From Eubacteriales bacterium (GTDB lineage Bacteria; Bacillota; Clostridia; Oscillospirales; CAG-272), in the NCBI GenBank assembly GCA_045538685.1, contig JAZSRX010000034.1:11111-75110 (forward strand): a stretch of DNA of 64,000 bases, read 5' to 3'. The number at the start of each line of letters is the position of its first letter. Within the stretch, counting starts at the first letter, position 1. Shown here one piece after another: positions 4,674-45,211 of the stretch. The notes under the pieces are model-generated. The model was not told the origin of the DNA. It did not search any database and saw only the letters and a list, made by a program, of their open reading frames with translations. Made by a program: the position numbers and the translations under genes.

Positions 4674-4684
4674 ATCCACCTCTT

Positions 4685-6136: not shown

Positions 6137-6307
6137 AAATAAAGCTTCGGACAGTCCTTTCTTAAAATTTGAAGCAAGGTTTTTAATCTGCCATTTGGGT
6201 GTTGTGGATTTTTGCTTTTGTGATGTTATTGGCTTTTTCCTTTTGGTGTTGTGGGGTATGCTTTTTGTATTGTGGGTTTTGCTTTTTGGTTTTATGGTTT
6301 TGCCGTT
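6137..6307 (-). repeat. C/A-rich (on mRNA strand) intra-operon spacer with 3-4 degenerate ~22-nt direct repeats (AAAAGCA-N4-CCACAA-N-AC)
   Basis: Plus strand reads GGTGTTGTGGATTTTTGCTTTTG / GGTGTTGTGGGGTATGCTTTTTG / TATTGTGGGTTTTGCTTTTTG. This is the only gap longer than 21 nt in the 17-gene operon. Confidence 0.7.
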
Positions 6308-7531
6308 TTATCTTGTAACCAGATAAAATTCCCCCTTGTCCTCGATACAAAAATCCTGATAGGAGTCGGCAAACAAATAAATTTTATAGTAGCAGAAAAT
6401 GTGCATAAACTTTTCTTCTATGCCGGCCCAATTCACAGAACGGGGCGGCACTTTTTTTATTTTCACCTGCCCCGATACGCGAAGAAGCTCCTGCAATATT
6501 CTTGCAGCCAGTGGCTCGGGGTAGTCAAACAGCTCTGTTGTGGCAGAAACACTGTCAAAATATCCGTCATCAAAAGGAAGGGCAAGACCGATAAAGCTCT
6601 CGGATATTAACCCACCGACATCATCAAAACGGACAATATTTCCCTCGGGATGACTTTTGGATATGCTGTTAAAGACAAGCTCACCCTTGGTCTCGGGAGT
6701 GCTTATGCTTTCGCCTTCAAGCTGAGAAAGTGTTTTTATAACGCGAGAGAGTGCCTCGCTTGCACTTTCCTTTAAGGCAAAACTAAGCAGTTCTTCCATA
6801 TCCCGATTGCGATATTTTTTCAGCATAGCATACATATTTGTACGTCCGCTTATTTCCTCGTTTAAAATATTTCTCTTGTGAGGAATATGAATGGCTCTGA
6901 TATGGGGTGCGGTTTTCAGCTTTCCAAGCTTTGACAGGCGGTAGCCGATATCAACATCCTCTGCTCCCCAGCCCTCAAAACTCTCATCAAATCCGCCCGC
7001 CTGTAAGTATTTTTCTCTCGGCACTACGGCGAGGGCGGTGTAAAATCTGTTCCAGGGCAGATTTTCGCTCTTCTCTCTTGCGTCGGGAAAGGCGGTGTGC
7101 CATAAATCAAAATCGGGGTGGCTTGATTTTTTATCAAAATAGCTCTTAAAATAAATATCCACCGTCTCGGGAAGCATTCTCATCGCCGCCACAGAGCCGC
7201 AAATACCCGACACCGAGCCAAAATCATATTCTCTTATTTTTTCCAAAGCACCCGTCTCAATTAGAACGTCTCCGTCTAAGAAAAGAAGCAGCTCGCCCCT
7301 TGACATTCCTGCGGCAAGGTTTCTGTTGGCAGAGCGATTGCCCCTCTTTTGCGAGTGAACAACCAGAACTCCTCTGTCCTTCATCTTATCAAGGGTTTTC
7401 TTGGTTTTTTCGTCAGAATAATCGTCAACAACAATTATCTCGTCTTCACTTCCGAGCTGGGAAATAACCGAGTCAAGAACATTTTCAATATGACTGTTGT
7501 TGTGACAGGGTACAATTACACTTATTTTCAT
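6308..7531 (-). CDS. Family 2 (GT-A) glycosyltransferase with C-terminal extension (407 aa)
   Basis: KISVIVPCHNN...IIVVDDYSDE...FLDGDVLI (DxD); ~150 aa unassigned C-terminal region. Confidence 0.8.
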   Translation of the reverse strand: MKISVIVPCHNNSHIENVLDSVISQLGSEDEIIVVDDYSDEKTKKTLDKMKDRGVLVVHSQKRGNRSANRNLAAGMSRGELLLFLDGDVLIETGALEKIREYDFGSVSGICGSVAAMRMLPETVDIYFKSYFDKKSSHPDFDLWHTAFPDAREKSENLPWNRFYTALAVVPREKYLQAGGFDESFEGWGAEDVDIGYRLSKLGKLKTAPHIRAIHIPHKRNILNEEISGRTNMYAMLKKYRNRDMEELLSFALKESASEALSRVIKTLSQLEGESISTPETKGELVFNSISKSHPEGNIVRFDDVGGLISESFIGLALPFDDGYFDSVSATTELFDYPEPLAARILQELLRVSGQVKIKKVPPRSVNWAGIEEKFMHIFCYYKIYLFADSYQDFCIEDKGEFYLVTR

Positions 7532-8322
7532 ACATCAAACCTTTTTCCGTCAGAATCTATAACCGCATAATCCGAGGGAGAGATTTCGCCGATGTTTCTC
7601 CACTCTATAAACTCGGGATCGGTGCAATAGGAGCAATACTCGTGAGGACGGCTGATAAAGTCACATATATCCTCATAGGTCAGGGTTGGATCGTATATAT
7701 CAATCACCTCGCCGTCAAAGTTGTACTCTGTGCCAAAGAGGCGGTTAAACTCCTTAATAACCACAGGCAAAGGACACATCATAAACCTTCCGTCACGCAG
7801 TCCGTTGCACTTTTTCCACTGGCATTCCTCCCAGATTCTCACATAATCCGAGTCGCCCGCCATATTCATTCTCTTCCAGAACTTATCAACGTAGTTAAGT
7901 GTATGGCCAAGCTTATGCTTTTCTAAAACCTCCATTATCTCTGTAAGTTTTTTCTTCGTCGGCTCGTACACCGATATATCAAGGTGAACGCAACAGCTTT
8001 TTATCGCCTCGATAAGAGTGTCCGACATTTTGTCTAAAAGAAGTCCGTTTGTAACAATATCAATCTCCGAGTCGGGATAAAGCTCGCGTGTTATGTAAAT
8101 AAACTTATGAAGCTCGGGGTGCAAAAGCGGTTCTCCACCAAAAAGGCGGAACATCTCTATATGCTCTACCAGCTCCTTGAAGCGTGTCATATCTCTTCTG
8201 AAAACCTCTACATCGGCAAGATGCTTTTCCTGGCCCGAATTGCAAAATCTGCAGCATCCGCGACAGTTCAGATTACAGTGGTCTGCTACCGGATAGGCCA
8301 CGTTGTTTATAGATTTCATCAT
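7528..8322 (-). CDS. Radical SAM enzyme, short form (264 aa)
   Basis: The ORF-track start at 8331 is a TTG inside GGAGG; ATG ATG lie at 8322/8319. VADHCNLNCRGCCRFC, LFGGEPLLHPEL, C-terminal HEYCSYCT. Its 3' end (7528) overlaps the start of the next operon gene, GT2 6308..7531, by 4 nt. Confidence 0.8.
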   Translation of the reverse strand: MMKSINNVAYPVADHCNLNCRGCCRFCNSGQEKHLADVEVFRRDMTRFKELVEHIEMFRLFGGEPLLHPELHKFIYITRELYPDSEIDIVTNGLLLDKMSDTLIEAIKSCCVHLDISVYEPTKKKLTEIMEVLEKHKLGHTLNYVDKFWKRMNMAGDSDYVRIWEECQWKKCNGLRDGRFMMCPLPVVIKEFNRLFGTEYNFDGEVIDIYDPTLTYEDICDFISRPHEYCSYCTDPEFIEWRNIGEISPSDYAVIDSDGKRFDV

Positions 8323-8334
8323 TACCTCCAAAGA

Positions 8335-9099
8335 TTAAATCTCCCAGTCGGAAGAGGGCGGATTTATTCCACCGATCTCCCAATCAAACTCTACCGTATT
8401 ACCGCAATATCTGCAAGAGTCGTGTGCTCTGCTGCTGAATTCGATAATATCCTCATAGCCCACATCTTCCGAATGGATATTAAGTATATCCTCGTCAAAT
8501 CTGTAATCAGCACCGAAAAGCTGATTATATCTTCTGATAAATATGGGAAGCGGACACATTACGAACTCGCCGTTCTGAAGATAATGGCATATTTTCATAT
8601 CGCAGTCGCCATATACCGATGCAATGTCCGAATCTCCCTTTTTGTTGAACCGCTTTCCGAACCTTTCAATATGCGAAATATTGCTTCTCAAACCGTTCTC
8701 GGTCAAAAAGTCGGTGATTTTTTCAAGCTGCCCCTCAACCGCAGGGTAAACGGTAATATCAACCTTAACATCTGCCTCGCGAAGAACTCTCACACTTTCG
8801 GGCGAGAGACGGGGGACAAGTATACCGTTTGTCATAAGGCATATCTCGGCATAAGGATAGTATTTTCTCACCGCAAGAACAAAATCGTTAAGGCGGGGAT
8901 GCAGAAGCGGTTCTCCGCCGTAAAGCTTTATCCAATCTATATGGTCTACAAGCTCTTTAAACCTCTTAAGATCGCGAATAAAGCTGTCGTAGGAAACAAA
9001 GCTTTCCTCCTGGCCCCGAGTACAAAAATGATAACATCCCTTGCAATTCAGGTTACAGTGGTCAACTATGGGAAGCCCTAAAACGTCAAGCTTGTTCAT
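8335..9099 (-). CDS. Radical SAM enzyme, short form (254 aa), tandem paralogue of 7528..8322
   Basis: IVDHCNLNCKGCYHFC, LYGGEPLLHPRL, HDSCRYCG; shares RFKELV[DE]HI...GGEPLLHP with its neighbour. Confidence 0.8.
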   Translation of the reverse strand: MNKLDVLGLPIVDHCNLNCKGCYHFCTRGQEESFVSYDSFIRDLKRFKELVDHIDWIKLYGGEPLLHPRLNDFVLAVRKYYPYAEICLMTNGILVPRLSPESVRVLREADVKVDITVYPAVEGQLEKITDFLTENGLRSNISHIERFGKRFNKKGDSDIASVYGDCDMKICHYLQNGEFVMCPLPIFIRRYNQLFGADYRFDEDILNIHSEDVGYEDIIEFSSRAHDSCRYCGNTVEFDWEIGGINPPSSDWEI

Positions 9100-9120
9100 T
9101 TTGCACTCTCCTTTCGAAAA

Positions 9121-10038
9121 TTATGTAAACATATATTGACAATTTCGGCAATATTCGTTTGTTGGCTGCTGTTTTTTGAATAATTCAAACTTCTGTGATG
9201 ACATTATTTCATCAATGGAACTGTGGTACACATTACCGATCTCGGTGGGATTAAACATTCCGCAGGGTGTTACCGTTCCGTCATAATTTATGCATATATC
9301 CTGTCCTACGTTGGGGCAGGAGGCATAGTTTGCACAGGTGGGTGTGGTGTTTTCGGTCTCAAAAGATACACCCGAAATCTGAGAAGGCAGACGAAGCATC
9401 AGGTTTGTTCCCTCGAAAAGCTCCTTCATCTTCTTATACAAATCGGCAAGATACTCAGATTCAAGATTAACCATACGGTTAAACTCGCTTTCCATATCGT
9501 AATTACGAACTGCGTTGCAGAAGAAGTGGCAATTATGCTCTCTGGCAAACCTTGCAACCTCATACGTCTCGTAAAAATTGGCGGGCTGAAGGGTGTACAC
9601 AATGGCTGTGGTGGAGGACACAGAGCAAAGCTCCTCTATATTCTTCATCACTCTTTCAAAATTGCAACCTGCTCTTATTTTTTCAAGATTTTCCTTCTTC
9701 ACACTGTCAAGAGAAATCATTACCTCGCAGGAGCAGTCTGCAAGTGCCTTTGTAATTCCTTCGTCATTATAGTTCATATTGGTGAACAGACGTATTCTGT
9801 TTTTCGGGAATTTCTCTCTTGCGTAATAAATGAATTTTGAAAATTCGGGGTGGATTGTGCTCTCTCCGCGTCCGTTTAACCTTAGTACACTGTACCGTCC
9901 GTCAAGCTCGGTAAGAATTTTGGTATAAAGCCCAAAATCCATAAAATAACCCGGCTTGTTATATCTTGCACCGTATCCGCACATCACGCAATTAAGATTG
10001 CAGTTACGGCTTACTTCAACAATTATTTCTTTATACAT
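9121..10038 (-). CDS. Radical SAM/SPASM-type enzyme (305 aa)
   Basis: VSRNCNLNCVMCGYG, LNGRGESTIHPEF, C-terminal CANYASCPNVGQDICINYDGTVTPCG...YCRNCQY. Confidence 0.85.
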   Translation of the reverse strand: MYKEIIVEVSRNCNLNCVMCGYGARYNKPGYFMDFGLYTKILTELDGRYSVLRLNGRGESTIHPEFSKFIYYAREKFPKNRIRLFTNMNYNDEGITKALADCSCEVMISLDSVKKENLEKIRAGCNFERVMKNIEELCSVSSTTAIVYTLQPANFYETYEVARFAREHNCHFFCNAVRNYDMESEFNRMVNLESEYLADLYKKMKELFEGTNLMLRLPSQISGVSFETENTTPTCANYASCPNVGQDICINYDGTVTPCGMFNPTEIGNVYHSSIDEIMSSQKFELFKKQQPTNEYCRNCQYMFT

Positions 10039-10849
10039 TTTTGTCCATTAATTTTGATAATCTGTCAACGGCTCTCAGCATATCGTCATCATCGACATAG
10101 AAATCGTTGATAATAATATCCTTGCCCTTGAATTTTTCAATAACCCATCTTTTCACTACGCAATAAATCGCAGAGTGAAGCTCCATATGTGTTTCGGCAA
10201 TAACCGCCCTCACCGCAGAAAGAAGCTCTGAGTCGTCCTTATCGTACTCCTCGTCGTGATAGTAAAGCTCCTTATTCCACTGCATAGTGTTATCCGAATA
10301 CTCCATATGAGTGCGAATGGATTTGCTGTCCCTCTCCTCTTTTACGGCAGGGGAAAGAGGTCTTCCAAGGCCGCTGACGTGGTTTTCACATTCAAGAAGG
10401 AAAAGTCCCTCGAACATTTTGTGCACAAGATCCTCTACGTCATCCCAATAGTATTTATATTTGCAAACAATATTGTCCTTGAATGCCTGCTGCTTTTCTC
10501 TGTGCTCGGGCGGCTGCTTTTTCCAATAGCCAAACCTGCGATGATCCTTTTGCACAAGGGCGATTATGGGCTTTCCAATCTCAGCGGCATACTCACATTC
10601 AAGCTCGGTATAGCTGTAATTATCCCAGGTTACCGAGCCGTATCTGTCGCCAAGAATAGCAACGTAAAAATCGCATTCGTCTATGGTTCTTTTTATGTTT
10701 TTCCACTGTTCCAGAGGAGGAAGAACAAAGAATGTTTCCATTCCCGAAAATATGTAATGATTTTTTATTATTTCTTTTATCGCCTTGGGACGCTCGTCCT
10801 TCAGATCATAATAAGTGGAGCTTAAAAAAACCACTATTTTTTTATCCAT
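10031..10849 (-). CDS. DUF4062-like domain protein (272 aa)
   Basis: The N-terminal ~100 aa fit the DUF4062 pattern as I remember it (VVFLSSTYYDLKDER...GMETF...CDFYVAILGDRYGS). The acidic C-terminal ~150 aa are unassigned. It overlaps both neighbours by 8 nt. Confidence 0.6.
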   Translation of the reverse strand: MDKKIVVFLSSTYYDLKDERPKAIKEIIKNHYIFSGMETFFVLPPLEQWKNIKRTIDECDFYVAILGDRYGSVTWDNYSYTELECEYAAEIGKPIIALVQKDHRRFGYWKKQPPEHREKQQAFKDNIVCKYKYYWDDVEDLVHKMFEGLFLLECENHVSGLGRPLSPAVKEERDSKSIRTHMEYSDNTMQWNKELYYHDEEYDKDDSELLSAVRAVIAETHMELHSAIYCVVKRWVIEKFKGKDIIINDFYVDDDDMLRAVDRLSKLMDKNV

Positions 10850-12035
10850 TTTGCATTTCCGCCTTTTTAAGAAGAAAGTTTTCTATTTTTTTAAATGCTT
10901 CCACAATATAACCTGTATCCTTATCGCTGACAAGCAGTAATTCGTGGGGAATCAGCACCACTCTGCCCGCCATACTGTGACACACCGAGAGATCGTCTGC
11001 ACATCTTCCGCCCGAGGTACGAAATGCCTCCTGCATATCGCAGCTTTTCTCATAGGAAGGAATAATCGGTATTCCCTCGCTGCGAATAAGACGTACAAAA
11101 TCCTCTGCACAGCCGTATTTCTCGTTGCAATATATAGCCAGGGTGTGATAAATTCTGCGTCTTGTATCGGTCTCGGTCTTTTGCGTGGTGAAAATTTTAC
11201 TGTCCTTTAATGCGTCGGCAATTCGACGGGCATTTTTCGCCCTTTTCTCTGCCTCGGAGTCGAATTTAGAAAGCTGAGATACGGCAAAGCAGGCACAAAG
11301 CTCGCTAAGACGGATATTTGTGCCGTTATATTTATGCTCATACCACTTACAGCCCTCACCTCGTCCGCAGTTGTGCAGGGCATACATATATTTATATAGC
11401 TTCTCGTCGTCGGTTGCCACTGCTCCGCCCTCTCCGCAGGTAAGGTTTTTGCTCTTCTGGAAGGAATAAACACTGATATCCGCATACTGACAGTCGCCAT
11501 ATCCCACACTGCCAAAGGACTGAGCACTGTCCGCAATTATCTTTATATCCCGATTGCCGATAAGCTTTCGGATTCTTGAAATATCCACCGCATTTCCTGC
11601 CCAGTCAACCGCCATAACTCCTCGGGTTTTCTCGGTTATAAGCTTTGCAAAGCTGTCGGCAATGTTAAATGTATCGGGATTTATATCGCAGATAACAGGA
11701 ACAGCTCCAACAGCAACAATAGAGGATATGCTGGAATAAAAGGTATATCCGGGAACGATAACCTCGTCACCCGCACCGATACCAAGTCCCCGAAGGGCAA
11801 GTTCAAGTCCAACCGTTGCATTGGCTACGGTTATTGCATATTTTCTTCCGTTGCGAAGGGCGGTTTCCTTTTCCAGCCGTGTATTATATTCTCCGCCGGC
11901 TTTGGCAATTTTACCCGACTTAATCAGTCGGCCAATAAGCTTTATATCCTGTTTTGAGGTTATTGGCCAGGGAGCACAAATCTCTTTACAAACCGGCTTT
12001 CCTCCGTGAAAAGCGGGCAAATCATTTTTTATCAT
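10842..12035 (-). CDS. DegT/DnrJ/EryC1/StrS-family PLP-dependent sugar aminotransferase (397 aa)
   Basis: The ORF-track start at 12110 lies inside the upstream gene; ATG at 12035 gives MIKNDLPAFHGGKPV. PLP-lysine motif YSFQKSKNLTCGEGG. Confidence 0.85.
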   Translation of the reverse strand: MIKNDLPAFHGGKPVCKEICAPWPITSKQDIKLIGRLIKSGKIAKAGGEYNTRLEKETALRNGRKYAITVANATVGLELALRGLGIGAGDEVIVPGYTFYSSISSIVAVGAVPVICDINPDTFNIADSFAKLITEKTRGVMAVDWAGNAVDISRIRKLIGNRDIKIIADSAQSFGSVGYGDCQYADISVYSFQKSKNLTCGEGGAVATDDEKLYKYMYALHNCGRGEGCKWYEHKYNGTNIRLSELCACFAVSQLSKFDSEAEKRAKNARRIADALKDSKIFTTQKTETDTRRRIYHTLAIYCNEKYGCAEDFVRLIRSEGIPIIPSYEKSCDMQEAFRTSGGRCADDLSVCHSMAGRVVLIPHELLLVSDKDTGYIVEAFKKIENFLLKKAEMQNG

Positions 12036-13506
12036 ATACTTTAAGTCTTTCAAGTGTGCCGTTCTGCACGAACTGACAGTGTCCGCAGTGCATAGGCATT
12101 TTGTTGTCATAGAATGCCTGTCTCCAGGTCTTATATACAGGCGAGTTGATTATTTCCTTGATAGGTGTTTCAAAAACGTTGCCTACAATTACGTTCTTGT
12201 TAAAGCAACATATAGCCACGTTTCCGTCAATATCAATATAGGGCTTTTCTGCAAGCCAATCGCAAATTCCCTGACAGTTGTAAAGAGCAGACTGCTTTTC
12301 GTAAACCTGGGGAATTTCGGTAAGCTCCATATCCTTGTTCTTCTCGGAAAGCTCCTCCTGCATATTTACGGAAACACTTGAAGCCACCGAGTTCATTTTC
12401 TCGATTTCTATTGCTATCTGCTCATCATTCTCGCAGTCAAGAAGCATATCCTCGGGAACAAGCACCTCGATGCCAATCTCTCTGCCAACCTTCAGGCACT
12501 CCTTAAATGAGCGAGAGGAAACATTGGGATAATTGATAAGCTCGTCGTCATAATTTCCGATTTCCTTATATGCTTTAAGACAGTTAAAGGCAATTCTCTT
12601 AAAGCCGTATTTTTTGGCAAACAGAACAAGGTCGGTAAGATGAAGAATGTTCTGTCTCATAGCCACACTTGCCATACAAAGCAGAACCTTATCGCTTACG
12701 GTATTAAGCAGGGCAAGATTCTTTTCAAAGGTCTCAAAGGAAATGTTCTTTCTGATTTCCTCAAAGATTTCCTTGTTCGCACCGTCGCAGGATACATTAA
12801 GCTGTCTGAAAATTCTTGAAACATATCCGAAAAGCTCGGGGCTGAGGTAAGAAAGGTTTGTATTTGTAACAATCTGTACACCGTACTTTTCGCAGGCGGC
12901 AAGAGTTTTCAGGATGCTTTTATCCATAAAGGGCTCGCCTGTTCCGTGGAGAGTAAGAATCTCTGCATAAGGAAGAAGCTCATCAAACTTTTCAAGCATT
13001 CTCTCGTCAAGGTGCTTTGCGTGCTTGTTCTTTAAGAAGTAGTGGGTGCACATAATACACTGTGCATTACAGAAATTGGTGTGGGATATATGCAGATATC
13101 TTGGCATATAATCCGCAACGGTGTTCTTTGTGGCAACAGCCACGTCGATTTTAAGCTTGTTAAACATTTTAAGCTGTTTATAAAGCTTGTTGTCAAAGAG
13201 AAATTTTTCCACCTCGGCAAGGAAGAAGGAGTCGTCTATCGAGAATATCTGTGAGAAATAATAGATATACTGCGAAGGAGTGTTCTCCAAAAGTCGGGGC
13301 TGATTGTTATCGTCCATTATATGTATGATTGCGTCAAAATTCTCTTCACCCATACAGCAGAAAACACCGAGAGGTGACATTCTCTCTGCCTCTGTCTCGG
13401 ATACAAAAATCTTAATCTGATCCTTCAAAATGTGGGAAATCTGCTTTGCGGAGCATATACACTTGAACACTCCGTCTCCGCTTCCCTTGATGTATATATT
13501 TTTCAT
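12022..13506 (-). CDS. Radical SAM/SPASM-type enzyme, long form (494 aa)
   Basis: HTNFCNAQCIMCTH, LHGTGEPFMD, C-terminal CQGICDW...AICCF...HCGHCQF; ~145 aa N-terminal extension. Confidence 0.85.
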   Translation of the reverse strand: MKNIYIKGSGDGVFKCICSAKQISHILKDQIKIFVSETEAERMSPLGVFCCMGEENFDAIIHIMDDNNQPRLLENTPSQYIYYFSQIFSIDDSFFLAEVEKFLFDNKLYKQLKMFNKLKIDVAVATKNTVADYMPRYLHISHTNFCNAQCIMCTHYFLKNKHAKHLDERMLEKFDELLPYAEILTLHGTGEPFMDKSILKTLAACEKYGVQIVTNTNLSYLSPELFGYVSRIFRQLNVSCDGANKEIFEEIRKNISFETFEKNLALLNTVSDKVLLCMASVAMRQNILHLTDLVLFAKKYGFKRIAFNCLKAYKEIGNYDDELINYPNVSSRSFKECLKVGREIGIEVLVPEDMLLDCENDEQIAIEIEKMNSVASSVSVNMQEELSEKNKDMELTEIPQVYEKQSALYNCQGICDWLAEKPYIDIDGNVAICCFNKNVIVGNVFETPIKEIINSPVYKTWRQAFYDNKMPMHCGHCQFVQNGTLERLKVYDKK

Positions 13507-13525
13507 TTTCGATTCCTCGCTTATT

Positions 13526-14389
13526 TTACAAATTTCTATATCCGAATTTTATACTCGATATCCATTTTCCCATAATGTGATAGAAAAGCTCGCCCGTCAG
13601 CAAATGTGCGTTTTTACGGAACAGAAGTGTTGGGCCGATGCTCTTCCAGAACATCTTGTGAAGCCGTCCGTCAAAGCTGCCCTTTTTCGGGCCGTACCTC
13701 TTCTGAAGCTTAGTTGACGAAACACCGTCGCGATAGCTCTTTTTCAGCATTTGCTTACGTTTTGTGGGAGAGTGTGCATAGACAATCGGCTTCGGTGTGT
13801 ATTTAAGAGTTGCACCAGAATCAAGTGCTCGCCACATAAGATCCACGTCCTCGGCATTATTGCCAAACCACTCGTCAAAGCCGGAAAGCTTTGTGAGCAA
13901 TTCCTTTTTATAGGCACAGTTTGCGGTGATAAAAGAGGTTCTCAGATTCCTCTCTTTTACATAAAACTCCTCGTCGGGAAAAACCATAATGTTTTTAAGC
14001 CAAAGCTCCGACCAGAATTTTTCAACCTCGGTCTCGGGAGGAGCACCAACTACCTTTCCGCCGATGGCATCAATATTACCGTCCGACTCAAATGCCGCCC
14101 TTATAGATGCAATCCACTCGGGATGAACATAATTATCGCCATCTGTAAAAGCGATAATATCCCCCTTGGCATGCATAATTCCCACGTTTCTACCCGAGGC
14201 GGCAGTTCTGTTTGGATTGTCATATACGGTTGCTCCCGTAGCGGTGGCAAGTTCTTTTGTCCTGTCACAAGACATTCCGTCTGCCACTATAATTTCACAG
14301 GGCAGCTCGGTATTAGCGAGAATACTCTCTATACATTTTGCAATTCCCTTTTCCTCGTTATAGGTCGGGATTACAACAGATATCGTCAT
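13526..14389 (-). CDS. Family 2 (GT-A) glycosyltransferase (287 aa)
   Basis: TISVVIPTYNEE...IIVADGMSCDRT...FTDGDNYV; its start overlaps the upstream stop as TAATG. Confidence 0.85.
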   Translation of the reverse strand: MTISVVIPTYNEEKGIAKCIESILANTELPCEIIVADGMSCDRTKELATATGATVYDNPNRTAASGRNVGIMHAKGDIIAFTDGDNYVHPEWIASIRAAFESDGNIDAIGGKVVGAPPETEVEKFWSELWLKNIMVFPDEEFYVKERNLRTSFITANCAYKKELLTKLSGFDEWFGNNAEDVDLMWRALDSGATLKYTPKPIVYAHSPTKRKQMLKKSYRDGVSSTKLQKRYGPKKGSFDGRLHKMFWKSIGPTLLFRKNAHLLTGELFYHIMGKWISSIKFGYRNL

Positions 14390-15483
14390 TATCTTTTCTC
14401 CAATAAATTTTCTTTGCGAGTAATGTTAAACTCGGCAGTACAAAGCAACCAACAGCCCTCACAGCGACATTCTGCCATTGCTCTTCTCTGTTCGGAATAG
14501 CTCTCCGACATCCATATATCCGGAAGCGATTTTTCCTTCAAGTCGCCCACCGTAGGAAGCGAGGTGCTCCAACAGCTTCTCACCGTAAGGTTGGGCCAAA
14601 TGTAAACCGCCTCGTATCCGCAAAGGCACTGATACTGCCCTCTCGGAATTCGCTTTCCCGTTCTGAAAAAGTCCGAAAAATACTCTAAATACTCTCTCGA
14701 ATTAAGAATTAAGTATCCCTCGTCCTTCATTTCAAGAATCCGCCTGATAACACGCTCGGTCTCACAGGCATCTGTCACAGTAAGCGAGTTCTCGCCGTTA
14801 ATAAAATTGTGATAGGGTGTAAGCTGAACATTTACACCGTCTTTGGTGCATTTTTCTATCAGCTCTATAACGTCTTTTTGATTGTTCTCGGAGAGAACCG
14901 CCGTTACATTAAAAACAAGATCGGGGTGAATTTCTCTGAAACGAAGAACATACTCGTATGACTTCATAACCGACTCAAAATCAATGCCTCGGTTTTCCTT
15001 ATAATGCTCTCTGTCAAAAGAGTCAATGGACATAATTATATATCTCTGTCCCGCCTTATAAACCGACTCTAATTTTTTAGGCAAAAGAATACCGTTGGTA
15101 AGCAAAATCGGCTCTATTTTCCGAGCGACCATACCGCCGATAACCGCCTCTATATCCTTATAAATCAGGGGCTCACCGCCGCTTACCGAGCAGGCCTTAA
15201 CTCCCATTTTTTCAAGTCCGTCAAGAACCGGGAGAATTTCCTCGATGCTTCGCTCTGTAAGCTTGCCCTGATTTCTCGAATAGGCATGCTCACAATAGGC
15301 ACAGTCTGAATTACAACGCATCGTTATTTTGAAAAAGGCATAGCGGATTTTTTCGGGTATGGCTCCGCACCTGTGGCACTTTTCCACCTCGTGTGCGTGA
15401 TTAATAAGCTCACCCGGATATTCCTGTCCGAAATGAGACGCACAAAGACGTTCAATTTCGGTTATAAAGTTTTTATCCTTCAT
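14389..15483 (-). CDS. Radical SAM enzyme with C-terminal Cys-rich (SPASM/twitch-like) region (364 aa)
   Basis: TMRCNSDCAYCEH, VSGGEPLIYKD, C-terminal YQCLCG...RSCW...CRCEGCWLLC. Confidence 0.8.
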   Translation of the reverse strand: MKDKNFITEIERLCASHFGQEYPGELINHAHEVEKCHRCGAIPEKIRYAFFKITMRCNSDCAYCEHAYSRNQGKLTERSIEEILPVLDGLEKMGVKACSVSGGEPLIYKDIEAVIGGMVARKIEPILLTNGILLPKKLESVYKAGQRYIIMSIDSFDREHYKENRGIDFESVMKSYEYVLRFREIHPDLVFNVTAVLSENNQKDVIELIEKCTKDGVNVQLTPYHNFINGENSLTVTDACETERVIRRILEMKDEGYLILNSREYLEYFSDFFRTGKRIPRGQYQCLCGYEAVYIWPNLTVRSCWSTSLPTVGDLKEKSLPDIWMSESYSEQRRAMAECRCEGCWLLCTAEFNITRKENLLEKR

Positions 15484-15493
15484 AAAATGAAAA

Positions 15494-16828
15494 TCACTTT
15501 CTGAGTATATCGTATGTGTTGGTGCTGATGTCCTTTAATGTATCCGCAAGCTTCTTTCCGTCATCCATATTTCCCTCTAAGCAGAGGCAGAAGACCTTCC
15601 ACCAAAGCATTTTTTCATTCTTTGACAGGGGGAAATACTCTTTTTCAAGGAAACGGCAGAAGTTTACATAACGAAGCTCGCCGAAATACTCGCAAACACC
15701 GTCTGTCTCTTCAACCGCAACCGTTCTGCGATTTCTGATGGCATCAAGAATTCCCTCTCTTGTATTCTCCTTGCAGAAGGCAATAGTGTAATGAGTAGGG
15801 AATATACAGCTTTCGTCATCGGCATTTACAATATGGCTGTCCGACTGACCGAGGAAGGCATAGGGACGGTCGATATTTCGCATACATTCAAGGGCGAGAA
15901 GATGCTGCTGCTGGGAAATTATACTGCTTCCCTTAGGCGAACCGCCCACGACCTCAAATGCGTCAACCTTTCCGCTTTCTATATAGCTCTTGATAAGCGA
16001 ATGAGGAGCATCAAGACGTGTCCAATCAAAAATGGGCTTCCAATAGGGATGACAGAGAACGGTAAGACCGCCAAGCTGATGCACCTTGTCCGAAAGCTTG
16101 CAAAGCCGTTCTGTAATCCAACGAAGCTTTTCCTCCCGGGAATTGAACTCGGGAATACTGTCAAGACGATAAAGCTCCTTCGGAACCGGCTCTTCTGCAC
16201 CGAGAGAAATAATATGCATCGGCTGATAATTGCAGGAGAACTCCTCTCCGTTAAGAACGGTAAGCTGTCTGTCAATATAAACCTCCGACAGCATTTCCAG
16301 ATATTTTTTCGCCTGAACAGAGCCCTCATAGTTATTGTGGTCGGTCAGGGCGATATAGTCAAATCCGCTTTTAAGAGCCATACCGATGTGCTGAGAGGGC
16401 TCTTCAAGTCCGTCGGAATATGTGCTGTGCAAATGGGTGTTACCCTTCAAGGGCAGGAGAGGATACATATCCTCTTCAAGTGCGTACACAAAGGTGGTGA
16501 GTATCATTTCCTTATCGCCGCTTTCGTGTCTTTTCCAAATTGCTATCATATAGTCCTGTTCCTCGTTAAATTCGTAGGAGAAGGAAAGCACACCGTCTTT
16601 TGCCGTTACAACAAAGGGATTCTGCTCGGTTGCACTGTTTGCGGCAACCTCATATTCAAGCAGAGGACTTACGAGAACAAAATAATCGCCCTCTAAAACA
16701 AAGTGGGGATATGCGGTAACATACCTGCTTCTTACGGTGATAACCGCCTCTTCGTGTGCCTTTACAATACGGGGACTCAAAACAAAATAATTTTTCTTGT
16801 TTGTCTGGTAATAGGTAGGAATAGACAT
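15494..16828 (-). CDS. PHP-domain metal-dependent phosphoesterase (444 aa)
   Basis: GNTHLHSTYSDG...IALTDHNNYEG (PHP HxH...SDG signature) after a ~125 aa N-terminal domain. Confidence 0.65.
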   Translation of the reverse strand: MSIPTYYQTNKKNYFVLSPRIVKAHEEAVITVRSRYVTAYPHFVLEGDYFVLVSPLLEYEVAANSATEQNPFVVTAKDGVLSFSYEFNEEQDYMIAIWKRHESGDKEMILTTFVYALEEDMYPLLPLKGNTHLHSTYSDGLEEPSQHIGMALKSGFDYIALTDHNNYEGSVQAKKYLEMLSEVYIDRQLTVLNGEEFSCNYQPMHIISLGAEEPVPKELYRLDSIPEFNSREEKLRWITERLCKLSDKVHQLGGLTVLCHPYWKPIFDWTRLDAPHSLIKSYIESGKVDAFEVVGGSPKGSSIISQQQHLLALECMRNIDRPYAFLGQSDSHIVNADDESCIFPTHYTIAFCKENTREGILDAIRNRRTVAVEETDGVCEYFGELRYVNFCRFLEKEYFPLSKNEKMLWWKVFCLCLEGNMDDGKKLADTLKDISTNTYDILRK

Positions 16829-16842
16829 AATTTTTCCTTTCT

Positions 16843-17940
16843 TTAAACGAGAATCAGCAATACCGCGAAGGAAATACTGACACTTAACAGTAAAATCAAG
16901 TATTTAATTTGGTTTCCCGGGAATGTGCCGTGCTCCTGATATTTTGAATACATAACCTGTCTATACAGGGGCTTTACGGTTTTATACTTTATGCAGCCCG
17001 AGATTGTTCCAAGCTTTTCGAACACCGAAAGAAGCTCTATTAAAATCGCCTTAAAAAATCCGATTTTTTCCTTGACAGATGAGTAAACTCCGCCTATCAA
17101 AAGGTGCGAGAGGAACATAATCGGTGACATAAGCAATGCCCAACATCCCACAAAGCAGGTGCAAAGCAGGGAAAGTGCGGTTATCATTATCCAAACCGCT
17201 ATCCAGTTTACGTCGGCAATCAGTCTTTTGGGGTTCGACTTGGCAACAAGAACATTCGACCGTCCGTAGCTTATAAGTCGGGTTGCAACGTCCTTAAAAT
17301 TAAGCCAGGTTTCGTTGCTGTGATAAACAACCGCATCGGGTGCGGACTTAATCACATAACCTGCGTCGCAGATGCGAAAACCGATGTCAACATCCTCTCC
17401 GCCCGGCTTGTTGGGAAAATCGGGGTTAAATCCGCCCGATTTGTCAAATGCCTCTCGCAGAAGAGAAAAGTTGGCGGTTACACCCCAGGAAAGCTCCTCC
17501 TGCTCTAACGGCTGAACAAATGCCGCACACCAAGAGGTTTTTGATATCGCCTTTATAAAGGAATTTTCCCCTCCTTCAAGGATAACAGGGCCACATACCG
17601 CACCGATCTTTTCATCGGTGTATTTTTTTAGATGTTCGTTCAGAATATTGGGTGTTACAACACAGTCGGAGTCGCAATAGAACAGCAGATTGTACTTTGC
17701 ATAAGAGACGCATTTGTTGCGTTTTATCGCCACCGATGAGGGCTCGTAATAATATCTTGCATTATGCTTCTCACAAAGAATCTCAATTGCCGAGGCATCC
17801 TCCTTACCCGAATTGTCAAGCACCACAAGCTCGCTTGGCAAAGGGCAATTTTTCCTTGCCTCATCAAGACTGCAAAACAGACGTTCAAGCAGCTTTACCC
17901 TGCCGTAGCAGACAATCAGAATACTTATTCCGTCAATCAT
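16843..17940 (-). CDS. Membrane-anchored GT2 glycosyltransferase (polyprenyl-phosphate glycosyltransferase-like architecture, 365 aa)
   Basis: ISILIVCYGR...VVLDNSGKED...YCDSDCVV, followed by hydrophobic C-terminal segments (WIAVWIMITALSLLCTCFVGCWALLM, YLILLLSVSISFAVLLILV). Confidence 0.75.
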   Translation of the reverse strand: MIDGISILIVCYGRVKLLERLFCSLDEARKNCPLPSELVVLDNSGKEDASAIEILCEKHNARYYYEPSSVAIKRNKCVSYAKYNLLFYCDSDCVVTPNILNEHLKKYTDEKIGAVCGPVILEGGENSFIKAISKTSWCAAFVQPLEQEELSWGVTANFSLLREAFDKSGGFNPDFPNKPGGEDVDIGFRICDAGYVIKSAPDAVVYHSNETWLNFKDVATRLISYGRSNVLVAKSNPKRLIADVNWIAVWIMITALSLLCTCFVGCWALLMSPIMFLSHLLIGGVYSSVKEKIGFFKAILIELLSVFEKLGTISGCIKYKTVKPLYRQVMYSKYQEHGTFPGNQIKYLILLLSVSISFAVLLILV

Positions 17941-19808
17941 TTTACACCTCCCAGAAGAGCAAAAGCTATGGCGATGCCAAATGAAATCACAAGAGAAATA
18001 AGAGCTGCTTCAAAAACAATTCTGTTTGTATTTGCCCGAGCGACGATTTTGTCAGAATATATGCCGTAGACCATATTTCTCGGCACCCTTTTAATGCCTA
18101 GCGAGGCGGTACGCATTGTCAGCTTGTAGGAAAGACGGCTTCCCAGCTCCACACCCGAGGAACCCGACCGCACAAGGCGGATTACCGCCGAGAAAATAAG
18201 GTTCAAAATGATAAACGAAGCGGCAAAAACGAATAACTTTGGCTCAAGGAAATAACCAACCGCGGCGAGTATCAGGAACAAGAATGTCATCAATGACTGA
18301 ACAGGCAAAAGCTTCATAAAGCAGTCGCTTCGTCTGTGATAAAGCTCGGTTACCGACAGGGCGGAAAACCTGGTATATTCCTTCTTCAATGCCGATTTGT
18401 CCTCTATCTCAACCGATAGCTTGCTGTCTGTAACGGTTTTCACCTCGGAGCAGTGTGCCAGGGCGGAGATAAGAGTTTTCGAAACGGTGGATTTATGGTA
18501 TCTTCCGAAATCCGCCTTGTTGAAAATATAAACCGAGAAAAAGCCACGCATAGAGCGATTTTTTGTCTGGAAATAATCACAAAGAGAAGATATCCTTTCT
18601 TGCGTATCCGAAGAGACGGGATATCTTACCTCCACACACTCTTCCTCATCAAAATAGGGCAACAGCCACTTTACATCAAGCTTTATCTTAATGGGAGAAA
18701 CTATGACGAAGGCACTTCCCTTTTCACCTTCGGGAAGCTGATTTTCGGGGGTGATGTTTATGTATCTGATTCCCTTTTCCCTGAATGCCCGCTTTGCGAT
18801 TTTTTTGCAGTTTATCTTGAAAATAACCGCCCCGATAAGATGAATGATATACTCTATGTGGAATTTCAGTGTGATGTAAAATGCATACAGCAGAGATATG
18901 ACATAAACCGAGAAGGAAAGAAGATTTTCGCTTTCCGACGGCACAAGTGTGATACAGCACAAAACGGGAATCAAAAGCAGGTAAATAAAGTCAAAGGGTA
19001 CGTAGAAATAGGATGTAAAAATGTCCTTTTGCTTATTGAGCTTCATCATTCCCCAGAAAAGAATTTCAAACAGATAGCCGATAAAAAGCACAAGGGAAAT
19101 GGTGGGATTTACTTTCAGGAAAATCGCCGAAAAGGCAAAGAGCGAAAGCACACCCTCCACCGCCGCACAGCAGTAAATCAGGCCACGGGTTACCGACTTT
19201 GCCGATCTTACAAAGGTTTTTGTTTCGCTTACTATGTCATTTTCGTAGTCCATATACTGATGAATGAGAATATATCTGATTCCGTAAACGAAGACGAAAA
19301 CATTAATGAGGGCGAACAGCAAAAGGTCAACTTCAAAGATAAACGGAATTACCAAAAGCTGAACATTTCTCTGGCAGAAGGATGCGGTTATAAGCCCCAA
19401 TACACCCCTTTCCTTAAAGCGAAGCGGTTTAAAGGAATAGAAAATGCCGAAAAGGTATGCAACAAGGGCAAAAATCATAAATTCGGGAGTGAATTTAATG
19501 AATGCCGCCGATAAAAAATGAATAATTGTAACAACGACAAAAGCCGCAACACCCACACCGATACCGGTGGAATTAAAAGCGTTGCGTTTGCCTGCTATTT
19601 TATCCTGCTCTACGTCGCTTAAATCATTGGCAAGATAGCCGAGAGCAAGATAGGTTACTGTGTACAAAAGGAAGAAGCAGAAAAGAGGAAGAGCCGATGC
19701 GGCACTTCTGCCGTTAAGCAGAGAAAAGAGTATAAAAACAGCTATGGACAAAGGCAGCTTGGAACCAAACCACTCTGTAACTCTGAAAATGCTTTTCAAT
19801 ATCCTCAT
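17937..19808 (-). CDS. UbiA-family prenyltransferase fused to an unassigned C-terminal soluble-plus-TM region (623 aa)
   Basis: The ORF track starts at GTG 19814; ATG at 19808 lies 6 nt after AAGGAGA. The N-terminal half is multi-TM and carries both Asp-rich motifs (NDLSDVEQD, DYEND). The C-terminal ~300 aa have no motif I recognise. Confidence 0.7.
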   Translation of the reverse strand: MRILKSIFRVTEWFGSKLPLSIAVFILFSLLNGRSAASALPLFCFFLLYTVTYLALGYLANDLSDVEQDKIAGKRNAFNSTGIGVGVAAFVVVTIIHFLSAAFIKFTPEFMIFALVAYLFGIFYSFKPLRFKERGVLGLITASFCQRNVQLLVIPFIFEVDLLLFALINVFVFVYGIRYILIHQYMDYENDIVSETKTFVRSAKSVTRGLIYCCAAVEGVLSLFAFSAIFLKVNPTISLVLFIGYLFEILFWGMMKLNKQKDIFTSYFYVPFDFIYLLLIPVLCCITLVPSESENLLSFSVYVISLLYAFYITLKFHIEYIIHLIGAVIFKINCKKIAKRAFREKGIRYINITPENQLPEGEKGSAFVIVSPIKIKLDVKWLLPYFDEEECVEVRYPVSSDTQERISSLCDYFQTKNRSMRGFFSVYIFNKADFGRYHKSTVSKTLISALAHCSEVKTVTDSKLSVEIEDKSALKKEYTRFSALSVTELYHRRSDCFMKLLPVQSLMTFLFLILAAVGYFLEPKLFVFAASFIILNLIFSAVIRLVRSGSSGVELGSRLSYKLTMRTASLGIKRVPRNMVYGIYSDKIVARANTNRIVFEAALISLVISFGIAIAFALLGGVK

Positions 19809-19884
19809 AGCCACTCTCCTTTCCCGAAAATCAAAGTGAATAATAAAAATTTTAATTTAAAAAATTTTCAAGATGCTTTTTTAA

Positions 19885-19912
19885 AGATAAATTTATTTTA
19901 AAATAAATATCT
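19885..19912. promoter_or_regulatory. 28-nt AT-rich near-perfect palindrome overlapping the predicted transcription start of the rSAM operon (candidate operator)
   Basis: AGATAAATTTATTTT|AAAATAAATATCT, immediately downstream (minus strand) of the -10 box. Confidence 0.3.
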
Positions 19913-19917
19913 ATAAA

Positions 19918-19946
19918 AGTATAGCACGAATAAGTCGAATTGTCAA
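19918..19946 (-). promoter_or_regulatory. Sigma-A-type promoter of the 17-gene operon
   Basis: Minus strand reads TTGACA (19946-19941), a 17-nt spacer, then TATACT (19923-19918). An AT-rich leader of ~95 nt runs to the AAGGAGA RBS. Confidence 0.65.
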
Positions 19947-20113
19947 TATATTTGTCGTAATATGGAGAAAGGAAATGTTCGCCCTGTCGGTTTGTAATTT
20001 TGACATATTTTTTCATCTCGAAAATTCATAAAAATGGTTTATTTTTGTGCTTTTTGGTGTTTTATGTACTCTATAGTTTACATTTTATGACATTTTACGC
20101 AAGAAACAAAACA

Positions 20114-44482: not shown

Positions 44483-45211
44483 ATGGAAGAAAATACCAAC
44501 CTCACGAATAAAGAAAATCCGCATCAACCAAACTCTCTGATCAGTATAATTGCATTATCCGTTGCGGTAATCGGCATAGTTATAGCTGTAATCGCTCTTG
44601 TTCTGGGAGGCAAAGACGGAGAAACTCCCACAATCAGCATCAGCGATGACGGCTATTGGGTAATCAATGGCGAGAAAACAAACGTAAAAGCCGAAGTAAA
44701 AGAGCCCGAAATCACTAACGAAAACCCTCAGGGTCTTGACTTTTACCTTAAGGATGACGGAACATATATTGTTTCCATAGGAAAAGCAAAGTATCTCTCT
44801 AAAGTTGTTATTCCCGCTACATATTGCGGAAAGTCTGTAACCGAAATTGCTCGGTACGGCTTTTCGGGTTATCCAACAAATGAAACCTTTCCTCTTAAGG
44901 AAATTGTAATCCCCGACAGTGTTACAAGCATTGGTGGTGGTGCGTTCTATAAGTGCTCCTCGCTTACAAGTGTAGTAATCGGTAACGGCGTTACAAGCAT
45001 TGGTTATAGTGCGTTCTCTGATTGCTCCTCACTTACAAGTATAGTAATCCCCGACAGTGTTACAAGCATTGGTAATAGGGCATTCTCTCCTTGCTCCTCG
45101 CTTACCGACGTATATTACACTGGAAGTGAGAGTCAGTGGAGCTCTATTCTTATCGGCTATGTCAATTCTGCCCTCGATAACGCCACGAAGCACTACAACT
45201 ACGTTCCCTAA
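44483..45211 (+). CDS. BspA-like LRR surface protein, short (242 aa)
   Basis: MEENTN...TM...LGG; repeats SLTS[IV]VI[PG][DN][SG]VTSIG; C-terminus ATKHYNYVP. Confidence 0.8.
   Translation: MEENTNLTNKENPHQPNSLISIIALSVAVIGIVIAVIALVLGGKDGETPTISISDDGYWVINGEKTNVKAEVKEPEITNENPQGLDFYLKDDGTYIVSIGKAKYLSKVVIPATYCGKSVTEIARYGFSGYPTNETFPLKEIVIPDSVTSIGGGAFYKCSSLTSVVIGNGVTSIGYSAFSDCSSLTSIVIPDSVTSIGNRAFSPCSSLTDVYYTGSESQWSSILIGYVNSALDNATKHYNYVP

Follow-up and report, generated by a model that had tools for sequence, protein, structure and literature searches.

Three packed genes head a 17-gene operon

The window analyzed here is a whole 64,000-nt stretch of DNA from an Eubacteriales bacterium (contig JAZSRX010000034.1), and all coordinates count from its first letter. 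Between 19808 and 15494 on the minus strand lie three packed open reading frames (ORFs) of 623, 365, and 444 amino acids (aa), which encode a fusion protein with a UbiA domain, a membrane family 2 glycosyltransferase (GT2), and a hydrolase of the PHP family, respectively.

17937-19808, minus strand: UbiA-fusion gene (gene 1), 623 aa; Pfam UbiA match of 38.1 bits (cut-off 34.2) over residues 26-264
16843-17940, minus strand: membrane GT2 gene (gene 2), 365 aa; Pfam Glycos_transf_2 (PF00535) match of 46.5 bits, with the GT-A domain at residues 1-235
15494-16828, minus strand: PHP-family hydrolase gene (gene 3), 444 aa; Pfam PHP (PF02811) match of 33.9 bits (cut-off 26.4)

A model that saw only the letters and their translations (hereafter, the sequence-only reading) had taken this trio for the head of an operon, and both the gene junctions and the conserved gene order agree with it. 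The trio opens a run of 17 genes that covers about 20 kb and reaches the window edge. The first gene junctions measure -4 (gene 2 overlaps the UbiA gene by 4 nt), +14, +10, and -1 nt, while those across the whole run range from -14 to +21 nt with the single exception of a 171-nt gap. Because the junctions are this tight, we treat the 17 genes as one transcription unit. The trio consists of real genes and not of chance ORFs, since full-length homologues exist for both the UbiA fusion (34-48% identity) and the PHP protein (50-73% identity). The start codon of gene 1 is the ATG at 19808, preceded by the ribosome-binding site GGAGAG; an alternative GTG at 19814 lies too near the GGAGAG, and the homologues start with MxxLK at the equivalent Met.

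The UbiA domain represents a large unnamed subfamily

Gene 1 had been described from the letters as a multi-transmembrane (TM) protein carrying both UbiA Asp-rich motifs, fused to about 300 residues with further TM helices, and this description held in every part. The product contains YLANDLSDVEQD and HQYMDYEND as quoted at the time, and a hydropathy scan placed about 10 TM helices in residues 1-335 and three further ones after residue 495.

18804-19808, minus strand: UbiA domain of gene 1, residues 1-335, 10 TM helices; delimited from Pfam, invariant residues, an AlphaFold2 (AF2) model, and Foldseek

The first motif reads N61 D62 xx D65 xxx D69 and the second, in the loop after TM6, D187 xxx D191. 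All six residues are invariant in the 20 fused proteins compared, and the equivalents of both motifs are invariant in 98 of 98 stand-alone relatives, which score 35-66 bits against Pfam UbiA. With a hidden Markov model match above the gathering score, both Asp-rich motifs, and an AF2 model that adopts the UbiA fold (pLDDT 85), gene 1 belongs to the UbiA superfamily (PF01040). A profile search with the UbiA domain alone returned 1,993 representative proteins, 1,244 of them (50%-identity clusters) at E <1e-10, and most of these matches are about 330 aa long and span all ten TM helices.

Searches of PDB sequences with the fused protein, either as a single sequence or as a family profile, gave no match. 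A profile of the 98 stand-alone relatives, on the other hand, matched PDB chains of chlorophyll synthase (3.1e-15, 59 bits, both motifs aligned), AfUbiA (3.5e-9), DGGGPS (1e-7), and, weakest, Rv3806c (2.2e-5, 27 bits), the last over its N-terminal half only (chain residues 17-138). Foldseek ranked AfUbiA first (4tq4, E 8.5e-6, TM-score 0.70), followed by DGGGPS, ApUbiA, Rv3806c (3.5e-3, TM-score 0.57), and UBIAD1, and it also matched 7bpu, 4od5, and 8j8k. No NCBIfam model came near its cut-off for the fused family. The ChlG model nevertheless matched 19 of the 20 fused proteins and 86 of the 98 relatives, at 20.3 bits (range 20-30) against a cut-off of 313 and with a best E-value among the relatives of 5.8e-17. 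Other models matched the relatives less widely: BchG 77, archaeal "prenyltransferase" models 48-74, and DGGGPS 13-14, with weak matches to homogentisate phytyltransferase (18) and MenA (12). By these profile and model matches, the UbiA domain does not group with the quinone or haem prenyltransferases, a grouping that the sequence-only reading had thought worth checking. The chlorophyll synthase/DGGGPS clade is its nearest neighbor, but the scores stay below the equivalog cut-offs, hence gene 1 is not a member of it.

Gene 1 is thereby shown to be a UbiA-superfamily enzyme of a large unnamed subfamily whose nearest characterized relatives are chlorophyll synthase, AfUbiA, and DGGGPS. It shares with ChlG/BchG and DGGGPS/AfUbiA the 9-TM UbiA fold, the NDxxDxxxD and DxxxD motifs, and an aligned YSxPPxRxK segment. 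It differs from them by its tenth TM helix, by a family-specific extension of about 290 aa, and by a context of glycosyltransferases and radical S-adenosylmethionine (SAM) enzymes in anaerobic Clostridia that is unrelated to pigments or archaeal lipids.

Partner genes and motifs favor a prenyl diphosphate donor

In five lineages, the gene directly upstream of UbiA encodes a NUDIX protein that NCBIfam identifies as a type-1 isopentenyl-diphosphate (IPP) isomerase. Loci related to the window operon are given here as L numbers, each with its own coordinates.

L001, 9472-9996: IPP isomerase gene; 120.7 bits, just under the cut-off of 127
L003, 9443-9976: IPP isomerase gene; 122.4 bits, just under the same cut-off
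L013, 6927-7448: IPP isomerase gene; 149.9 and 117.6 bits, above the two equivalog cut-offs of 127 and 105.8
L019, 9447-9983: IPP isomerase gene; 153 and 118.3 bits, above the same two cut-offs
L025, about 9489-10001: IPP isomerase gene

The motifs TNACCSH and E-x-E are conserved in these proteins, and we take them to hold the active-site Cys and Glu of type-1 isomerases. Given the NCBIfam identification, an assignment of the NUDIX neighbor as an ADP-ribose pyrophosphatase was rejected. Flavoproteins of the geranylgeranyl-reductase (GGR) family occur in L009 and L019 as further partners of the subfamily; the pathways of ChlG and DGGGPS likewise involve GGR-family reductases, ChlP in the one and archaeal GGR in the other. 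In addition, the UbiA subfamily includes the fusion proteins P0120 (847 aa), P0130 (726 aa), P0155 (742 aa), and P0154 (1070 aa), which join UbiA to a radical SAM/SPASM protein, a GGR-like protein to UbiA, or UbiA to a GT4 and a GDSL hydrolase. To judge from their domain composition, these fusions would be Rosetta-stone links of prenyl transfer to radical SAM, GGR, and glycosyltransferase activities.

The sequence-only reading had proposed a different donor. By analogy with decaprenylphosphoryl-5-phosphoribose (DPPR) synthase and the PPPRS enzymes, ribose 5-phosphate would be transferred from phosphoribosyl pyrophosphate (PRPP) onto polyprenyl phosphate, the PHP protein would remove the 5-phosphate, and the GT2 would act as a GtrB/ArnC-type polyprenyl-phosphate sugar synthase. 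Part of the evidence fits such a route. Motif 1 (NDxxDxxxD), Y58, which lies three residues before N61, and an N-terminal R..(E/Q)W..K align with R22/W26, Y70, N73, and D77 of Rv3806c, and a phosphoesterase is co-conserved two genes downstream. Moreover, PRK08238, which we take to represent the HAD-UbiA (PPPRS) fusion type, gives the best single NCBIfam E-value in the fused family (1.6e-8, 10 of 20 members). The systems that make lipid-linked pentofuranose also share with this operon the UbiA fold, a phosphoesterase nearby or fused, and the general logic of a lipid-linked phospho-intermediate that is then dephosphorylated (PMC10994848, PMC11127046).

The metal site points the other way. In a cryo-EM study, Rv3806c is reported to bind PRPP through one Mg2+ (N73, D77) and a K/R cluster that includes K143 and K208 on helical bundle 2, whereas canonical UbiA enzymes have an acidic pocket needing a second Mg2+, and users of prenyl diphosphates work in this two-Mg2+ mode (PMC10994848). 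In enterobacterial PPPRS, the conserved residues named for loop IV are R366 and E369, and their alanine mutants stayed active (PMC11127046). Here, the DxxxD of the second motif is invariant, in contrast to the one-Mg2+ basic pocket of Rv3806c. The DPPR synthase models NF008976/NF008978 found a single match among the 20 fused proteins (E 3.4e-4) and two among the 98 relatives (6.9e-5 at best), and Rv3806c is the weakest profile match. The putative phosphatase of this operon is a PHP protein and not of the PAP2 or HAD type, and the partners found in sister loci, IPP isomerase and GGR-like proteins, point to a prenyl diphosphate. Finally, no flippase or GT-C enzyme that could consume a polyprenyl-phosphate donor occurs among the 17 operon genes, and visual inspection of the remaining window showed none either. 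The invariance of both motifs, the profile ranking, and the genomic partners together favor a prenyl diphosphate as the predicted donor of gene 1 and argue against PRPP. We regard the PRPP route as very unlikely.

Gene 2 is a membrane GT2 without a carrier-loading signature

As read from the letters, gene 2 is a GT2 with C-terminal TM segments: its DxD (CDSDC) and GGEDVD motifs are intact by sequence reading, which makes it a GT2 member, and a hydropathy scan placed TM segments at about residues 244-262, 264-286, and 343-365. This layout of a GT-A domain followed by C-terminal TM helices is that of GtrB, ArnC, and DPM1, and it speaks for the carrier-loading role that the PRPP route assigns to the protein, but it is not family-specific. 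Among NCBIfam models, gene 2 matched only EpsD (70.9 bits) and MftF (66.7 bits), each far below its cut-off, as well as HpsN and HpnI, and no ArnC, GtrB, or dolichyl-phosphate transferase model, so that the GtrB/ArnC-type role proposed earlier found no backing at the family level. The best PDB match is chondroitin synthase.

Homologues of gene 2 are 57-62% identical in L001, L003, and L005, and 30-44% identity links it to the GT2 paralogues of about 370 aa that stand beside stand-alone UbiAs. These paralogues occur in tandem after the UbiA gene, with up to four in L012, an arrangement that fits stepwise glycan assembly better than carrier loading.

Gene 3 is likely a phosphoesterase and clearly not of the CpsB type

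Gene 3 consists of an N-terminal domain of about 125 aa, a PHP core at about residues 128-376, and a C-terminal tail; the hydropathy scan placed no TM segment in this protein. The sequence-only reading had called it a 444-aa PHP protein on the strength of HLHSTYSDG and TDHNNYEG, both of which are present, and the Pfam match concurs. Nine residues (H132, H134, D139, H164, E196, H205, H260, D330, and H332) do not vary among 18 homologues, whose identity goes as low as 27%. Judged by PHP motifs, they should occupy the metal-ligand positions, which would give the full trinuclear-site set (HxH, D, H, E, H, H, DxH). The PHP fold signature and all nine ligands are shared with the PHP phosphoesterases (the two-domain PHP protein 3e38, the pAp phosphatase/RNase AM group, and CpsB), and a phosphoesterase role is likely on this basis.

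The best matches are the CehA/McbA metallohydrolase domain (62.5 bits, cut-off 80) and PDB entry 3e38 (E 1.3e-7). Together with the extra N-terminal domain and the C-terminal tail, they uphold the earlier remark that this protein is unlike the CpsB/Wzh phosphatases of about 245 aa. No CpsB model appeared among its NCBIfam matches and no CpsC- or CpsD-like gene lies in the operon; gene 3 is clearly not of the CpsB type. Its family is small and almost confined to radical-SAM-rich clusters, and the number of close homologues (17, at 50-73% identity) matches that of the fused UbiA family.

The C-terminal half of gene 1 is specific to the fused family

The remainder of gene 1 comprises two segments.

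18324-18788, minus strand: soluble alpha/beta domain of gene 1, residues 341-495, weakly GT-A-like and without a DxD; from the AF2 model and Foldseek
17937-18323, minus strand: residues 496-623 of gene 1, three TM helices with the conserved loop VPxxxVYGIYxxxIVxxAN, then the stop codon; from alignment, hydropathy, and the AF2 model

Judging by helix parity, the tenth TM helix of the UbiA domain should bring the chain back to the active-site side of the membrane. Modeled alone, the C-terminal half reached a pLDDT of 88.5, and a structure search, which had been suggested as a check, gave weak GT-A matches only: GpgS (4y6n, probability 0.94, E 0.05, 144 columns), followed by ArnC (9asc) and GtrB (5eke) at E 0.06-0.15. 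We treat the GT-A-like assignment of residues 341-495, which comes from the model, as a lead only. Although the half recalls the GtrB/ArnC/DPM1 layout of a GT-A-like domain followed by TM helices, it lacks a DxD and any sequence-level match to GT2. Its sole invariant acidic residue in the 20 fused proteins is E393, no Pfam family matched it even at E 10, and hhalign found it unrelated to the adjacent GT2 and to a 253-aa protein of L019. The module is family-specific: no stand-alone homologue was found in 30 fetched loci or in a search of 5.8 billion proteins, which returned two fragments only. The C-terminal half is probably a decayed, non-catalytic GT-A-like domain with three TM helices, perhaps serving as a docking or substrate-holding module.

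The trio is part of a conserved five-gene core

Gene context was inspected at about 12 loci. Full-length fused homologues number about 20 among the 5.8 billion proteins; they are about 618 aa long and 34-48% identical, and all come from metagenome assemblies of Clostridia. The order UbiA-GT2-PHP-radical SAM/SPASM-GT2 is identical in four fused lineages (L001/2, L003/4, L005/6, and L007/8, of which L007/8 represents the organism of the window). Within this five-gene core the trio is co-conserved, and the co-occurrence outside this genome that the sequence-only reading had made a check of its proposal is thus observed. After the core, the fused loci carry DUF4062, further GT2, asparagine-synthase-like, and radical SAM genes. 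Their flanking genes differ in every locus, and L001 and L003 contain integrases and genes resembling those of type IV secretion systems.

Among GTDB genomes, those of two cultured strains, Faecalicatena contorta ET51 and Dorea sp. YH-dor226, and one metagenome-assembled genome (MAG) of the Oscillospiraceae carry unfused versions, while the fused form appears in a single GTDB representative genome, a Clostridia MAG from roe-deer caecum. The sister cluster of L017 (Dorea sp. YH-dor226) and L019 (F. contorta ET51), at 4873-20111, has an identical ORF layout in both strains, and the proteins compared are 97-100% identical. It encodes, in order, an NTP-transferase, an epimerase, a UDP-glucose dehydrogenase, a radical SAM/SPASM protein, IPP isomerase, UbiA, another radical SAM/SPASM protein, two GT2s, a PaaK-like ligase, a U32 protein, an unknown protein, a GT2, a GGR-like protein, and a Macro-domain protein. 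In L012, UbiA is followed by four GT2s of about 370 aa and a GT9, and L013 holds two GT2s, an AMP-ligase, the NUDIX protein, UbiA, a U32 protein, five radical SAM/SPASM proteins, an asparagine-synthase-like protein, and a kinase. Distant PHP homologues (28-36% identity) also lie in radical-SAM-rich clusters, in L011 with a stand-alone UbiA of about 331 aa and in L009 with GT2, kinase-like, and GGR-like genes. By tblastn, the sister clusters have in common UbiA, the TM-anchored GT2 (30-44%), the 364-aa radical SAM protein (34-41%), the 287-aa GT2 (48-52%), large radical SAM paralogues, and the asparagine-synthase-like protein; the PHP protein recurs at 33-35% in three clusters. Full-text literature searches found no published description of such a UbiA/radical SAM/PHP/glycosyltransferase/GGR cluster.

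Radical SAM and sugar-modifying genes fill the rest of the operon

Downstream of the trio, the operon continues with 14 genes.

14389-15483, minus strand: core radical SAM/SPASM gene, 364 aa; Pfam Radical_SAM match of 84.5 bits plus SPASM
13526-14389, minus strand: soluble, MftF-like GT2 gene, 287 aa; Pfam match of 99.4 bits, MftF model 111.5 (cut-off 280)
12022-13506, minus strand: N-terminally extended radical SAM/SPASM gene, 494 aa, first of three paralogues; twitch-domain radical SAM model 106 bits (cut-off 170)
10842-12035, minus strand: DegT/DnrJ/EryC1 sugar aminotransferase gene, 397 aa; Pfam match of 275 bits, PseC and LegC models below cut-off
10031-10849, minus strand: DUF4062/TIR-like protein gene, 272 aa; Pfam DUF4062 match of 79.5 bits
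9121-10038, minus strand: radical SAM/SPASM gene, 305 aa; Pfam match
8335-9099, minus strand: small radical SAM gene, 254 aa; Radical_SAM and Fer4_12
7528-8331, minus strand: small radical SAM gene, 267 aa, paralogous to the 254-aa one; Radical_SAM and Fer4_12
6308-7531, minus strand: GT2 gene, 407 aa; about 52% identical in L001 and L005
4685-6136, minus strand: asparagine-synthase-like amidotransferase gene, 483 aa; asn_synth_AEB model 76 bits (cut-off 267), kept in sister clusters
3204-4679, minus strand: radical SAM/SPASM gene, 491 aa; domain match
2371-3186, minus strand: small radical SAM gene, 271 aa; domain match
1012-2352, minus strand: radical SAM/SPASM gene, 446 aa; domain match
1-995, minus strand: UDP-glucose/GDP-mannose dehydrogenase-family gene, running off the window; 58% identity over 311 aa to the UDPG_MGDP_dh protein of L011

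The operon thus contains eight radical SAM genes. The 364-aa protein directly follows the PHP protein in the fused loci, and its best PDB relative is BlsE, a cytosylglucuronate decarboxylase (E 9.5e-14, N-terminal 114 residues only). The 287-aa GT2 is 68-71% identical in the fused loci and 48-52% identical in L009, L019, and L025. Three of the SPASM proteins are N-terminally extended (446-494 aa, about 130 extra residues), and three small proteins of 254-271 aa lack SPASM; these paralogue sets point to repeated duplication within the operon. The 494-aa radical SAM/SPASM and DegT genes overlap by 14 nt (the longest DegT ORF extends to 12110, the start at 12035 being the one called in the identical contig L007), and their adjacency presumably echoes the BtrN-plus-aminotransferase logic of aminoglycoside pathways. 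The dehydrogenase-family gene, the 17th, lies 16 nt past the last radical SAM gene and ends the operon. The sole sizeable intergenic gap of the operon, the one of 171 nt, is at 6137-6307, and at its position L001 holds an additional 480-aa gene with no Pfam or NCBIfam match.

The DUF4062 protein stands in an unusual context inside a biosynthetic operon, as this domain has so far been described in anti-phage defense and in the vault protein TEP1. It is kept in all fused-type loci examined at 50-64% identity, and it matches the KpSwz TIR-like NADase (PDB 10wc, E 4.7e-20) with E82 aligned with the catalytic Glu. These features raise the idea of a new class of isoprenoid-anchored glycoconjugate with a polar core drawn from the ribose of NAD+ or adenosine. 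In such a scheme, the DUF4062 protein, together with Macro or PARG-like proteins, would derive the polar unit from NAD+, or a radical SAM enzyme would add 5'-deoxyadenosyl to a prenyl double bond with subsequent base removal (HpnH/HpnG-like), and the PHP enzyme would trim the ribose phosphate or pyrophosphate linkage. A PARG-like TIGR02452 protein in L005 (18396-19241, 151 bits, cut-off 50), a Macro-domain protein in L017 and L019 (349 aa at 19062-20111 in L019), and weak matches of the PHP protein to models of nucleotide-directed phosphoesterases (about 39 bits) would suit it. However, these domains are accessory, none being found in every cluster, the DUF4062 domain is otherwise known from defense systems, and the NUDIX neighbor is an IPP isomerase rather than an ADP-ribose pyrophosphatase. 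In addition, the core radical SAM protein is no orthologue of HpnH, scoring 55 bits where the cut-off is 225, and nothing was found that ties this scheme directly to the UbiA step. We hold a ribose-derived core to be unlikely; if true, it would mean a PRPP-independent attachment of ribose to a lipid and a biosynthetic, rather than defensive, role for a DUF4062 NADase-like domain.

The sister clusters bear on one more alternative, in which the UbiA domain would prenylate an aromatic or quinone-like acceptor by UbiA/MenA chemistry and the product would be a glycosylated prenyl-aromatic metabolite instead of a lipid-anchored glycan. A U32 protein related to the O2-independent hydroxylases UbiU/TrhP is present in L011, L013, L019, and L025, a PaaK-like aryl-acid ligase in L013 and L019, and the weak model matches to homogentisate phytyltransferase and MenA agree with this chemistry as well. 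The window operon, by contrast, has no U32, aryl-acid ligase, or aromatic-precursor gene, and few if any of the relatives are matched by the UbiA, MenA, and haem O synthase models, whose matches are far weaker than those of the ChlG and DGGGPS models. The sole U32 protein of the window (675 aa, 29963-31990, minus strand) lies at a distance of 10 kb from the operon and shares 30% identity, over 239 aa, with the short U32 proteins of the sister clusters; it is probably a housekeeping paralogue. An aromatic acceptor thus appears distinctly improbable.

A candidate pathway to an isoprenoid-anchored glycoconjugate

A lipid-linked glycoconjugate is the probable product of the trio. As for the complete operon, we lean, with somewhat better than even confidence, toward the reading that it builds an isoprenoid-anchored glycoconjugate, extensively tailored, on the cytoplasmic side of the membrane. 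The idea of a lipid-linked sugar product in the sequence-only reading remains plausible in this form, while its PRPP/polyprenyl-phosphate donor route found no support. In the proposed sequence, the UbiA domain would take a prenyl diphosphate and O-prenylate a polar, probably phosphorylated acceptor, yielding a membrane-bound primer. The PHP enzyme would then strip the phosphate and expose a hydroxyl, onto which the TM-anchored GT2 and, after it, the soluble GT2s would add sugars, including a uronic acid made available by the UDP-sugar dehydrogenase of the operon. Finally, the eight radical SAM enzymes, the DegT aminotransferase, and the asparagine-synthase-like amidotransferase would remodel the head group, with oxidation followed by amination, decarboxylation or ring contraction, and amidation as candidate reactions.

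The closest known logic is that of the head-group remodeling of hopanoids (HpnI/K/J) and of archaeal calditol lipids, to which this operon can be likened by analogy. In both the hopanoid HpnH-G-I-K-J pathway and the calditol synthase (Cds) pathway, a membrane GT2 attaches a sugar to an isoprenoid lipid, and a radical SAM enzyme then rearranges that sugar; for calditol, the scheme further requires a still-unidentified phosphatase ahead of the glycosylation (PMC13459092), a step that matches the order UbiA, PHP, GT2, and radical SAM proposed here. The likeness does not extend to orthology, as the HpnI (19.6 bits), HpnH (55 bits), and Tes (58 bits) models all score far below their cut-offs, and this operon differs by its eight radical SAM enzymes and its DegT, asparagine-synthase-like, and DUF4062 proteins.

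Several observations weigh against the glycoconjugate pathway. Which acceptor is used, how long the prenyl chain is, and in what order the steps run are all matters of inference. The PHP gene is absent from L012, L013, and L019 and is therefore not obligatory for the UbiA-GT2 chemistry, and its best family match is generic and below cut-off, so that the enzyme could be a diesterase or another hydrolase instead of a monophosphatase. The window's own cluster has neither an IPP isomerase nor a GGR gene, such support coming from the sister loci, and the window as a whole contains no IPP isomerase gene. Three ADP-ribose-related domain types (DUF4062, Macro, and PARG-like) recur and are not explained by the proposed steps. 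Finally, there is no export or flipping gene, and a destination at the cell surface is therefore unsupported.

If the glycoconjugate pathway holds, gut and rumen Clostridia would possess a widespread and undescribed route to an isoprenoid-linked, radical-SAM-tailored glycoconjugate. Isoprenoid glycolipids with remodeled head groups have mainly been described in archaea (calditol) and hopanoid producers. A counterpart in Clostridia, with eight radical SAM enzymes encoded by a single operon, would bring new chemistry and might also be a new host-facing molecule. The unfused version in cultured Faecalicatena and Dorea strains makes experiments feasible, and the large unnamed UbiA subfamily, now defined together with clear partner enzymes, offers a tractable entry point.

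Upstream region and other features of the window

A promoter-like site lies about 110 nt upstream of gene 1, within an AT-rich gap of about 600 bp that comes after dpaB and its stem-loop.

19918-19946, minus strand: promoter-like site of strong sigma-70 type, TTGACA-17-TG-n-TATACT, agreeing with the consensus at 11 of 12 positions and carrying an extended -10 TG; a consensus match only

Riboswitches and leader RNAs were also looked for, and no Rfam match at gathering score was obtained in 1-22000. A reading of the operon as a cluster for a ribosomally synthesized and post-translationally modified peptide was rejected, given that no conserved small ORF was found, that the upstream small ORFs are AT-rich and of low complexity, and that the cluster is full of sugar-nucleotide enzymes. 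The same applies to a defense-system reading of the whole operon, for which PADLOC gave only generic viperin-like matches to the radical SAM cores and left the trio and the DUF4062 protein unmatched. A link to sporulation was likewise discarded: dpaAB adjoins the window operon and spoVAC adjoins L011, but the flanks differ in every locus, and this adjacency seems to be due to chance or mobility.

Elsewhere, the window carries housekeeping genes (pheST, truB, mfd, pth, ddl, murI, tsaD, rex, and dnaD/dnaC-like), which together with dpaAB indicate a spore-forming member of the Clostridia. Further along, four additional genes stand out.

36378-37580, plus strand: Sel1-like repeat protein, 400 aa
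37708-39165, minus strand: predicted surface protein
44483-45211, plus strand: predicted surface protein, paralogous to the preceding one
48356-50863, plus strand: predicted surface protein, third paralogue

The Sel1-like protein has a near-exact internal duplication, in which the segment ADLGNACAQDNLGDCYYFGKGTNQSYEKAVIWYQKAAEQNYAKAQNNIGYCFEKGLGVPQNYAKAAEWYQKAAEQG is present twice. The three surface paralogues each have an N-terminal TM anchor, repeated leucine-rich units of the form IP(D/E)(S/G)VTSIG (BspA-like), and an ATIHYNYVP-like C-terminal end, and one of them contains a long low-complexity GTG(D/N)/GSG linker.

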